Source: TPA_inf: Saccharomyces
Lineage: Eukaryota
DNA: 64,000 bases
Direction: 5' to 3'
Assembly: GCA_000146045.2 (NCBI GenBank)
Contig: BK006940.2
Coordinates: 96,001 to 160,000 of the forward strand
Below are positions 1 through 62,007 of this stretch, one piece after another. Within the stretch, counting starts at the first letter, position 1. Each line of letters starts with the position of its first letter. The notes under the pieces were generated by a model. That model saw only the letters and a list, made by a program, of their open reading frames with translations, made no database searches and was not told where the DNA came from. Position numbers and translations under genes: made by a program.

Positions 1-1498
1 CCCTGTTCTGTTCATCGCATGTGCATATATATATATAGATATATATATACATTGTACACGGTGCACGGTAGTGAACATAACTATGAGCACGAACAGAGTC
101 CCGAACCTCGACCCGGACTTGAATTTAAACAAAGAAATCTGGGACCTGTACTCGAGCGCCCAGAAAATATTGCCCGATTCTAACCGTATTTTGAACCTTT
201 CTTGGCGTTTGCATAACCGCACGTCTTTCCATCGAATTAACCGCATAATGCAACATTCTAACTCTATTATGGACTTCTCCGCCTCGCCCTTTGCCAGCGG
301 CGTGAACGCCGCTGGCCCAGGCAACAACGACCTCGATGACACCGATACTGATAACCAGCAATTCTTCCTTTCAGACATGAACCTCAACGGATCTTCTGTT
401 TTTGAAAATGTGTTTGACGACGATGACGATGATGATGACGTGGAGACGCACTCCATTGTGCACTCAGACCTGCTCAACGACATGGACAGCGCTTCCCAGC
501 GTGCTTCACATAATGCTTCTGGTTTCCCTAATTTTCTGGACACTTCCTGCTCGTCCTCCTTCGATGACCACTTTATTTTCACCAATAACTTACCATTTTT
601 AAATAATAATAGCATTAATAATAATCATAGTCATAATAGTAGTCATAATAATAACAGTCCCAGCATCGCCAATAATACAAACGCAAACACAAACACAAAC
701 ACAAGTGCAAGTACAAACACCAATAGTCCTTTACTGAGAAGAAACCCCTCCCCATCTATAGTGAAGCCTGGCTCGCGAAGAAATTCCTCCGTGAGGAAGA
801 AGAAACCTGCTTTGAAGAAGATCAAGTCTTCCACTTCTGTGCAATCTTCGGCTACTCCGCCTTCGAACACCTCATCCAATCCGGATATAAAATGCTCCAA
901 CTGCACAACCTCCACCACTCCGCTGTGGAGGAAGGACCCCAAGGGTCTTCCCCTGTGCAATGCTTGCGGCCTCTTCCTCAAGCTCCACGGCGTCACAAGG
1001 CCTCTGTCGTTGAAGACTGACATCATTAAGAAGAGACAGAGGTCGTCTACCAAGATAAACAACAATATAACGCCCCCTCCATCGTCGTCTCTCAATCCGG
1101 GAGCAGCAGGGAAAAAGAAAAACTATACAGCAAGTGTGGCAGCGTCCAAGAGGAAGAACTCACTGAACATTGTCGCACCTTTGAAGTCTCAGGACATACC
1201 CATTCCGAAGATTGCCTCACCTTCCATCCCACAATACCTCCGCTCTAACACTCGCCACCACCTTTCGAGTTCCGTACCCATCGAGGCGGAAACGTTCTCC
1301 AGCTTTCGGCCTGATATGAATATGACTATGAACATGAACCTTCACAACGCCTCAACCTCCTCCTTCAACAATGAAGCCTTCTGGAAGCCTTTGGACTCCG
1401 CAATAGATCATCATTCTGGAGACACAAATCCAAACTCAAACATGAACACCACTCCAAATGGCAATCTGAGCCTGGATTGGTTGAATCTGAATTTATAG
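1..1498 (+). CDS. GAT1: GATA-family zinc-finger transcription activator of nitrogen catabolite repression genes. The window starts inside the annotated ORF; the first in-window ATG is at 83, and the annotated start lies about 35 nt upstream of the window.
   Basis: Single GATA zinc finger [37 protein letters not shown]. Poly-Asn, poly-Asp and Ser/Thr-rich low-complexity regions. The in-frame upstream codons read [33 protein letters not shown], matching my recollection of the annotated GAT1 N-terminus. Position immediately left of PAU5 and LPD1. Confidence 0.9.
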
Positions 1499-3230: not shown

Positions 3231-3599
3231 CTAATTTGCAATAGTGTAGATACCGTCTGCGGATAGAGCGCTAGAGATAGCTGGCTTTAATCTGCTAGAG
3301 TACCATGGAACACCAGTGATAACTCTGGTAACTTGGTCGGCGGGAATACCAGTCAACATGGTGGTGAAATCACCGTAGTTGAAAACAGCTTCTGCAATTT
3401 CAACTGGATAAGTTTCAGTTGGGTGGGCAGCTTGGAAGGAGTAGTATTCAGCCAAATGAGCTCTGATATCGGAAACATAGACACCTAATTCAACCAAATT
3501 AACTCTTTCGTCAGATTGAGATAGTGTAGTGGTTGCTGCAGCGGAGGCACCAGCGGCAATGGCGGCGACACCAGCGGCGATTGAAGTTAATTTGACCAT
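3231..3599 (-). CDS. PAU5: Seripauperin (PAU family cell-wall mannoprotein), 122 aa.
   Basis: [53 protein letters not shown]... is the canonical PAU/seripauperin sequence, with a signal peptide and conserved core. Confidence 0.93.
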
Positions 3600-5375: not shown

Positions 5376-5478
5376 GGGCGTGTGGTCTAGTGGTATGATT
5401 CTCGCTTTGGGCGACTTCCTGAATAAACAGGAAGACAAAGCATGCGAGAGGCCCTGGGTTCAATTCCCAGCTCGCCCC
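5376..5478 (+). tRNA. tP(UGG)F: tRNA-Pro (anticodon UGG) with a 31-nt intron, followed by a T7 RNA polymerase III terminator.
   Basis: gggcgtgtggtctagtggtatgattctcgctttggg[cgacttcctgaataaacaggaagacaaagca]tgcgagaggccctgggttcaattcccagctcgcccc. Removing the bracketed segment gives a 72-nt cloverleaf with A-box tggtctagtgg and B-box gggttcaattccc. The run ttttttt follows at 5481-5487. Confidence 0.9.
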
Positions 5479-18989: not shown

Positions 18990-19274
18990 ATGGACCGATC
19001 TTTGCAAGTATATATCTGTATGTATCCATATTTAGATGGCAGCAAGCAATATAGATTTGATGAGCTTATATCATTTTATCGTCCTTGTCCAAAAAGTCTT
19101 GATAACATTAAAAGTCACTACCGTCAAATCCATCATCAAATCCGCCGTCGAACCCACCAGCATCATCAAATCCGCCGTCGGACCCACCAGCATCATCACC
19201 GTAGTAATTGTTCTCGACAACGACAGTGTCTGGTCCGTCATAGTTGTGGTCGTCAAATGCGTGTTCTAGCATAG
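18990..19274 (+). CDS. AUA1: 94-aa ORF antisense to the 3' end of WWM1. It is annotated as AUA1, but its reality as a coding gene is doubtful.
   Basis: It lies entirely within or overlapping WWM1 on the opposite strand. Its odd HHQIRRRTHQHH repeat is the reverse-frame image of the WWM1 tandem repeat. Confidence 0.35.
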   Translation: MDRSLQVYICMYPYLDGSKQYRFDELISFYRPCPKSLDNIKSHYRQIHHQIRRRTHQHHQIRRRTHQHHHRSNCSRQRQCLVRHSCGRQMRVLA

Positions 19275-41157: not shown

Positions 41158-41485
41158 TGCATATAGTTTGCGTTGATCAGCTACAGATTTCAATGCTATA
41201 ACTAGTTATTTTTATATGTTTCACTTTAAGTAAAATCCAACTGCTCTTTTGCTATTCTTCGTTGATGCCTTATATGTATGAAAGCTGTACGTTCGGGATT
41301 TGAAAAGGAAATGAAGACGCGAATTAAAAAAAAATAATAAACTGGTTCATAGCAGAAAAGAGGAGACTAAATAAGATTTTGCTCTCATACAGATGCAACA
41401 CATAAAAACTTTAATCGATTTCAGTATGGAAAAAGATATGATACAATAAAATCTAAATCTTAGAAACTGATTTTGAATAAAAAAA

Positions 41486-41559
41486 CGACCCCAGTGAGGG
41501 TTGAACTCACGATCTTGCGATTAACAGTCGCACGCCTTAACCAACTTGGCCATGGAGTC
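41486..41559 (-). tRNA. tN(GUU)F: tRNA-Asn (anticodon GUU), 74 nt, no intron.
   Basis: The reverse complement is gactccatggccaagttggttaaggcgtgcgactGTTaatcgcaagatcgtgagttcaaccctcactggggtcg, with B-box gagttcaaccc. Confidence 0.93.
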
Positions 41560-42203
41560 AGTCACTTTTGAGTTCTGCAACTCTTAAAACGGAATAGACT
41601 ACGTAAAACAATGTCATCCCATACCAAAACAATCCTGATTTCTCAAAGGCATCGCAAACCTCTGGAATAAAAATCCACTATCATCTATCAACTAATAGTT
41701 ATTCAATATATTATCATATACAGTGTTAGATGATGACATAAGTTATGAGAAGCTGTCATCGAAGTTAGAAGAAGCTGAAATGCAAGGATTGATAATGTAA
41801 TAGGATAATGAAACATATAAAACGGAATAGTCTAACATTAGTATGTAGAAATATGGATTCCATTTTGAGAATTCCTAAATCCTCGAGGAGAACTTCTAGC
41901 ATATTCTGTATATGTTGGAATAAAAATCAACTATCATCTACTAACTAGTATTTACGTTACTAGTATATTATCATATACGGTGTTAGAAGATGACGCAAAT
42001 GATGAGAAATAGTCATCTAAATTAGTGGAAGCTGAAACGCAAGGATTGATAATGTAATAGGATCAATGAATATTAACATATAAAATGATGATAATAATAT
42101 TTATAGAATTGTGTAGAATTGCAGATTCCCTTTTATGGATTCCTAAATCCTCGAGGAGAACTTCTAGTATATCTACATACCTAATATTATTGCCTTATCA
42201 AAA

Positions 42204-52509: not shown

Positions 52510-52627
52510 ATCACGTGCTATAAAAATAATTATAATTTAAATTTTTTAATATAAATATATAAATTAAAAATAGAAAGTAAAAAAAGAAATTAAAGAAAAA
52601 ATAGTTTTTGTTTTCCGAAGATGTAAA
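52510..52627. other. CEN6: Point centromere CEN6. CDEI is ATCACGTG (52510-52517). CDEII is 85 bp of more than 90% A+T (52518-52602). CDEIII is agtttttgttttCCGAAgatgtaaaa (52603-52627).
   Basis: The tripartite structure is read directly: a Cbf1 site, an A/T-rich spacer of canonical length, and the CBF3 site with its invariant CCG core. It lies between DEG1 and LOC1, as in the reference. Confidence 0.93.
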
Positions 52628-61915: not shown

Positions 61916-62007
61916 TGCGAATTCTGTGGATCGAACACAGGACCTCCAGATAACTTGACCGAAGTTTTTTCTTCAGTCTGGCGCTCTCCCAACTGAGCTA
62001 AATCCGC
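61916..62007 (-). tRNA. tF(GAA)F: tRNA-Phe (anticodon GAA) with a 19-nt intron, 92 nt.
   Basis: The reverse complement is gcggatttagctcagttgggagagcgccagactGAAga[aaaaacttcggtcaagtta]tctggaggtcctgtgttcgatccacagaattcgca. This is the classic yeast tRNA-Phe exon sequence interrupted 3' of the anticodon. Confidence 0.93.

Follow-up and report, generated by a model that had tools for sequence, protein, structure and literature searches.

HTS1 and SUC2 of yeast each yield two protein isoforms via alternative transcription starts. Initiation in yeast usually takes place ~40–120 bp downstream of a TATA box. VAS1 likewise produces two isoforms via alternative transcription starts (cited in Georis et al. 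2015). Mapping of transcription start sites has also identified yeast ORFs with mis-annotated 5' extensions, such as YAL059W/ECM1 (Lu and Lin 2019, Genome Res, PMC6633255); GAT1 is not named in the main text of that study, and a literature search on the start codon of YFL021W returned no paper naming the gene. For GAT1 itself, three major 5' RACE clusters have been mapped, all downstream of the annotated ATG (ATG-M1), with one between M1 and M40 and two between M40 and M95 (Georis et al. 2015, RNA Biol 12:824, PMC4615157). Amino-acid substitutions place the starts of Gat1 translation at M40 and M95 (Rai et al. 2014, J Biol Chem 289:2918, as cited in Georis et al. 2015). By the same second-hand account, alteration of ATG-M1 had no detectable phenotype and the full-length M1 protein was undetectable. 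An ORF from M1 is present in 14 of 25 S. cerevisiae strain sequences, and genome-wide isoform profiling noted in the same study includes transcripts that start upstream of M1 but are strongly under-represented (PMC4615157).

The evidence assembled here indicates, with a probability of about 85%, that positions 1–82 of the analysed DNA comprise the core promoter and a short leader of GAT1 rather than coding sequence, and that Met40 is the first real start. Annotated codons 1–39 are non-coding with near certainty. This is the interpretation reached in a preliminary description of the locus and it is supported; given the published RACE and methionine substitutions, it is both correct and already known, having been established experimentally in 2014–2015. 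It carries little scientific novelty, the mapping of the start sites and the mutation of the methionines being a decade old. What that description says of the literature, namely several published initiation sites including internal methionines, agrees with the reported M40 and M95, and the 5' RACE check that it proposed finds the published ends all downstream of the annotated ATG (PMC4615157).

Reading frame and first AUGs of GAT1

The window, the whole 64-kb (64,000-nucleotide) stretch of DNA that was analysed, opens within the annotated gene (Table 1). Frame 2 is stop-free, equals residues 13 onward of the 510-residue Gat1p P0121, and its translation is 99% identical to the 510-residue S. 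cerevisiae Gat1 proteins P0001 and P0121. Since the stretch opens at annotated codon 13, ATG-M1 lies 35 bases before the window start (position relative to ATG-M1 = window position + 35), and the ATG at 83–85 is Met40; the frame-2 match thus bears out the assignment made in the preliminary description. The further claim that this is the first ATG holds for the frame, but an out-of-frame ATG precedes it on the plus strand at 19–21, where it opens a 54-codon ORF (19–183). It is true that the accompanying ORF list starts the frame at a GTG at 71. As a yeast start this GTG was rejected as an artefact: it results from the bacterial start-codon rule of the tool, combined with an ORF running off the window edge, and is meaningless in yeast.

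The base at -3 is A for Met40, Met95 and Met102, G for M1 and C for the ATG at 19, which lies upstream of the mapped 5' ends. On the plus strand, no ATG occurs in any frame between the 39–47 start zone and 83, nor between 86 and 247. Each GAT1 mRNA would be translated from its own first AUG, Met40 or Met95; the two internal start zones yield mRNA with Met95 as first AUG. Given that the main 5' ends lie at 39–47, all DNA further upstream is promoter that the major mRNAs do not contain, and most of the annotated extension belongs to it. The earlier suggestion that the long N-terminus is mostly 5' leader was therefore right in taking it as non-coding but overstated the leader, which covers only ~36–44 nt before the ATG at 83. 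The 510-codon annotation is a product of the longest-ORF rule, as the reference number of AT repeats happens to put M1 in frame with Met40.

Table 1. Coordinates of features in and around GAT1 and elsewhere in the 64-kb window.
Feature	Position	Strand	Basis
GAT1, S. cerevisiae, without first 12 annotated codons	1-1498	+	translation match to Gat1p
Probable 3' end of GAT1 promoter segment, annotated as codons 13-20; contains out-of-frame ATG 19-21	1-24	+	
(AT)6-AG-(AT)5-AC tract, length-polymorphic AT microsatellite, TATA-like	25-50	+	TRF, TATAWAWR, alleles, species alignment
5' RACE cluster +74..+82, start of mRNA with first AUG Met40	39-47	+	PMC4615157
Conserved 19-nt block, one T/C difference	55-73	+	four-species alignment
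GAT1 coding sequence from Met40, 471 codons + stop	83-1498	+	orthologues begin here; codon-type evolution
5' RACE cluster +120..+126, short mRNA with first AUG Met95	85-91	+	PMC4615157
5' RACE cluster +170..+176, short mRNA with first AUG Met95	135-141	+	PMC4615157
GATA_AreA domain (PF08550)	137-220	+	Pfam, residues 46-73 of translated 2-1495
Met95 ATG, shorter-isoform start	248-250	+	sequence; isoform start from PMC4615157
Met102 ATG	269-271	+	
ACAAAC hexanucleotide repeat (Asn-Thr repeats) in GAT1 coding sequence	677-704		
GATA zinc finger (PF00320)	893-994	+	Pfam
122-aa ORF downstream of GAT1	3231-3599	-	
tRNA gene	5376-5478	+	Rfam
30-bp tandem repeat, 2.3 copies, 97% matches	19131-19198		Tandem Repeats Finder
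RUF20, full-length match, 456 bits	35061-35503	-	Rfam
tRNA-Asn	41485-41560		ARAGORN, sole tRNA reported by ARAGORN
tRNA gene	61916-62007	-	Rfam

Beyond GAT1, the window holds a point centromere at 52511–52619, with CDEI (TCACGTG), ~80 bp of very AT-rich DNA and a CDEIII core (TTCCGAA); this pattern has a single exact match, and was recovered in none of 100 shuffles. The two tRNA genes found with Rfam are 92–103 nt long, a length that suggests introns. The gene syntenic with the ORF downstream of GAT1 carries PF00660 (SRP1/TIP1, seripauperin family) in other loci.

Species and strain variation between M1 and M40

The locus was compared with those of S. kudriavzevii (L001), S. uvarum (L002) and S. 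eubayanus (L004). S. paradoxus and S. mikatae, the nearest outgroups, formed no separate clusters in the protein search, were not among the members listed for the S. cerevisiae cluster, and lie outside this comparison. Gat1 of the three species measures 470, 469 and 475 residues respectively and starts at the Met40 equivalent, with in-frame stops upstream of its ATG in every case. An M1-like ATG is kept in all three, opening ORFs of only 37, 14 and 14 codons, which stop 8, 150 and 212 nt short of the Gat1 ATG (same order). Across the four-species alignment, the majority of pairwise gaps in the 300 nt that precede M40 have lengths not divisible by 3. Within the first 300 nt after M40, every gap length is divisible by 3, and variable columns fall 17, 12 and 49 times at codon positions 1, 2 and 3. 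The first conserved protein segment is GATA_AreA (IWxLYS...), which starts 18 residues past Met40, and the 39-residue extension was not found in any orthologue of a wider protein alignment. Conserved coding of codons 1–39, which the preliminary description had named as evidence against its own reading, was found in none of S. kudriavzevii, S. uvarum and S. eubayanus. Coding-type evolution begins exactly at M40, and the M1–M40 stretch evolves as non-coding DNA.

Variation within S. cerevisiae was followed in 12 GAT1 loci, picked via proteins of differing annotated length. M1 and M40 are separated by 117, 119, 123, 127 or 131 bp in these loci, which places M1 in frame 0 relative to Gat1 at 117 and 123 bp, in frame 1 at 127 bp and in frame 2 at 119 and 131 bp. 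The frame is not maintained among strains, as all three are present, and it is broken in 7 of the 12 loci, a count from which allele frequencies are unreadable given that the loci were chosen by protein length and not at random. All length differences lie inside the AT tract and consist of AT units gained or lost, with or without a G interruption; in one assembly (GCA_030036115.2), the two haplotypes carry different alleles, of 123 and 131 bp. The M1 alleles that are out of frame open ORFs of 24, 26, 39 or 75 codons. Gene-caller starts follow the allele: a start at M1 gives 508–514 aa, one at M40 gives 467–473 aa and one at the counterpart of the window-19 ATG gives 499 aa. The 499-residue protein P0131, which begins MCIYIYIYIY..., starts at this window-19 ATG, in frame at other AT-repeat lengths. 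The length behaviour of the M1–M40 stretch is that of a non-coding dinucleotide microsatellite. Because the ATG is never lost in the loci compared here, its frame shifts with AT length and it heads a separate short ORF in three species, the in-frame fusion of the reference looks accidental or derived rather than ancestral.

These data also bear on whether the 39-residue extension belongs to a genuine, conditional third isoform of Gat1, longer than the other two and particular to S288C-type strains. An open frame does run from M1 in the reference-type allele and in certain other strains (the 117- and 123-bp alleles), and rare long transcripts have been reported (PMC4615157). However, the frame is broken in the seven loci noted above and in all three other species, the extension is missing from all aligned orthologues, and the stretch includes a polymorphic dinucleotide repeat; in addition, M1-initiated protein was undetectable and mutation of M1 silent (as related in PMC4615157). 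A long isoform of this kind is extremely improbable. Given the rare long transcripts, it is conceivable that S288C-type strains, or cells in other conditions, make a trace of protein from M1.

The coding sequence downstream of Met40 also holds repeats, of another behaviour: the hexanucleotide repeat and an adjacent Ser-Ala repeat vary among strains only in 6-bp steps, unlike the upstream AT tract. Premature polyadenylation sites reported at +701..+708, corresponding to window 666–673, adjoin the hexanucleotide repeat (PMC4615157). Three proteins, P0004, P0136 and P0137 (strains BBF, CIH and AEL), show an in-frame deletion of ~80 residues (ASHNAS|VKPGS; ~window 530–760) that takes out the Asn-rich and premature-termination regions of Gat1, and P0136 additionally has a C-terminal frameshift.

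AT tract and conserved upstream DNA

The preliminary description had compared the in-frame sequence YIYIDIYIH to a TATA element. The tract is real and reads so in frame, but the span given for it, 24–50, was off by one: the 26-nt string atatatatatatagatatatatatac occupies 25–50, and base 24 is C. Tandem Repeats Finder gives 12.5 copies of an AT repeat at 25–49 (91% matches), and TATAWAWR, the TATA consensus of yeast, has five overlapping matches, which begin at 26, 28, 30, 40 and 42. It is a 2-bp tandem repeat; allele lengths are 2, 6, 10 and 14 bp apart, with every difference inside the tract. In a scan of the 64-kb window, the seven further alternating-AT tracts that reach 9 nt or more were without exception intergenic, while ~69% of the window lies inside ATG-initiated ORFs of at least 150 aa; alternating-AT runs of 13 and 11 nt would thus be out of the ordinary in true coding DNA.

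In all four Saccharomyces species aligned, a (TA)n run, five units or longer, stands directly 5' of the ACACGGTGCACGG block, and the tract keeps the same position in S. kudriavzevii, S. uvarum and S. eubayanus despite heavily diverged flanks. Besides the consensus match and this conservation, published starts lie 35–115 bp downstream: the RACE cluster at 85–91 is 35–65 bp and that at 135–141 is 85–115 bp beyond the tract. The third cluster, at 39–47, falls inside the tract at no such spacing, so that for this mRNA the tract is the initiation region and not its TATA box. On balance, this pattern of sequence, spacing and conservation inclines us to regard the tract as a TATA element. It would serve the starts at 85–91 and 135–141, with those at 39–47, and hence the Met40 mRNA, being served by a conserved TATA further upstream. 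That element, CACATATATATAGG, lies within CCAGCCACATATATAT(A/G)GG at ~window -75..-67 and is invariant in four species; it is ~105–120 bp from the 39–47 cluster, a spacing near the yeast norm, and ~155–215 bp from the two internal clusters.

The AT tract may instead be a merely neutral promoter microsatellite, with all three start clusters driven by CACATATATATAGG or by TATA-independent initiation. The free variation of its length and G interruption among strains suggests weak constraint on its exact form, and the invariance of the upstream TATA in four species points the same way. Against this, all four species have kept a (TA)n run, five units or longer, in the same place relative to the 19-nt block, although the flanks are heavily diverged, and the ~155–215 bp from the upstream TATA to the internal clusters exceeds the usual yeast range. 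Even with one RACE cluster inside the tract (PMC4615157), a wholly neutral tract is rather unlikely. The main text of that study holds no occurrence of 'TATA', and no AT repeat or frameshifts.

A further proposal is that the length of the AT tract tunes GAT1, through the spacing from TATA to start and through the status of the upstream ATGs (M1 and window 19). Repeat alleles would then switch these ATGs among short upstream ORFs, ORFs overlapping the Gat1 start and in-frame extensions, and could differ in Gat1 level or in the Met40:Met95 ratio, and thereby add to strain differences in nitrogen use. Such tuning is improbable.

In the four-species alignment, blocks upstream of Met40 are conserved as DNA, with neither frame nor distance to the ATG being kept. 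The most distant of those described here is a cluster of GATAAG repeats ~330–350 bp before ATG-M40, conserved in all four species; GATAAG is the type of site bound by Gln3 and Gat1. A second block contains M1 itself (CCCGGTATTAGCATGCACGTTTTCTTTCCTTyGCTyTTCCG, ~window -46 to -4; L007:603-645) and is nearly invariant in the four species. The 12 bases before the M1 ATG (CCCGGTATTAGC) are as conserved as the ~30 that follow, and the few substitutions lack a clear codon periodicity. Either a promoter element or a conserved upstream ORF could account for this block.

An upstream ORF headed by the M1 ATG would be regulatory, lowering Gat1 synthesis in the rare long transcripts, and would have become fused to Gat1 in S288C-type strains by chance. 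The four species show hardly any variation in the ATG and the ~30 bases after it (ATGCACGTTTTCTTTCCTTyGCTyTTCCG). A short ORF exists in each of the other species and in each out-of-frame S. cerevisiae allele (14, 14, 37, 24, 26, 39 and 75 codons), and rare transcripts from upstream of M1 are on record (PMC4615157). Yet equal conservation of the 12 bases before the ATG, together with the absence of clear codon periodicity, fits a promoter element acting at the DNA level, and neither the ORF length (14–75 codons) nor the peptide past ~residue 10 is conserved. The major mRNAs, moreover, do not include the M1 ATG, and its mutation was without detectable effect on Gat1 protein (in the account of PMC4615157). 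A regulatory upstream ORF at M1 is thus highly doubtful.

The third block, the 19-nt TACACGGTGCACGGTAGTG (TACACGGTGCACGGyAGTG), follows the TATA tract immediately on its 3' side and sits at the 5' end of the leader in the Met40 mRNA. The spacing between block and TATA tract is preserved across the species, while that between block and Gat1 ATG differs by ~40–70 bp. S. uvarum and S. eubayanus carry a pyrimidine-rich insertion of 40–70 bp between the block and the ATG, indicating that the position of the block is linked to the TATA tract rather than to the start codon. The block may serve as a conserved site of regulation where the leader begins. No match to the consensus sites of Reb1, Abf1 or Gcn4 was found in the M1 block or in the 19-nt block. 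The only exact match, a TGAGTCA of Gcn4/AP-1 type, occurs right after the 19-nt block in S. uvarum (approximately L002:1900-1915) and S. eubayanus (approximately L004:1875-1890); it is missing from S. cerevisiae, which has GTGAACA there, and from S. kudriavzevii.

Practical consequences and comparison with described systems

The 510-residue model of Gat1 is carried in databases, structure predictions, tagging and residue numbering, and it almost certainly includes 39 residues that cells do not make. An N-terminal tag or a promoter swap at M1 would disrupt the real promoter.

Compared with other genes in which the choice of transcription start sets the N-terminus, GAT1 resembles VAS1, HTS1 and SUC2 in that the first AUG of each mRNA is used. 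The longer product of those genes has a targeting signal of clear function, whereas no distinct function has been established for the M40 and M95 forms of Gat1 (PMC4615157). As a promoter element, the GAT1 tract is like a canonical yeast TATA box (TATAWAWR) in its consensus, its conservation in four species and a spacing to the 85–91 and 135–141 clusters that is near the usual range. It differs in being a long, length-polymorphic (AT)n run with one start cluster inside it, and its TATA role is a predicted one.

The closest precedent is the work on the same locus, which, as far as the two reports are represented in the later one, came to the same conclusion: M1 is unused, the 5' ends lie inside the annotated ORF, and the isoforms start at M40 and at M95/M102 (Rai et al. 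2014; Georis et al. 2015, PMC4615157). The two accounts part over the history of the first ATG, described there as 'progressively lost' from a once functional state (PMC4615157); here, the ATG is present at every locus and it is the frame that changes. The apparent loss of M1 among strains is a change of frame via the AT microsatellite, which, together with the separate short upstream ORF in three other species, argues against a once-functional M1 start. Finally, GAT1 shares with the YAL059W/ECM1-type cases of mis-annotation the presence of transcription start sites inside the annotated ORF, an extension missing from orthologues and a downstream in-frame ATG that is the real one; it goes beyond the cases of Lu and Lin (2019) in having two internal start zones that give two isoforms.
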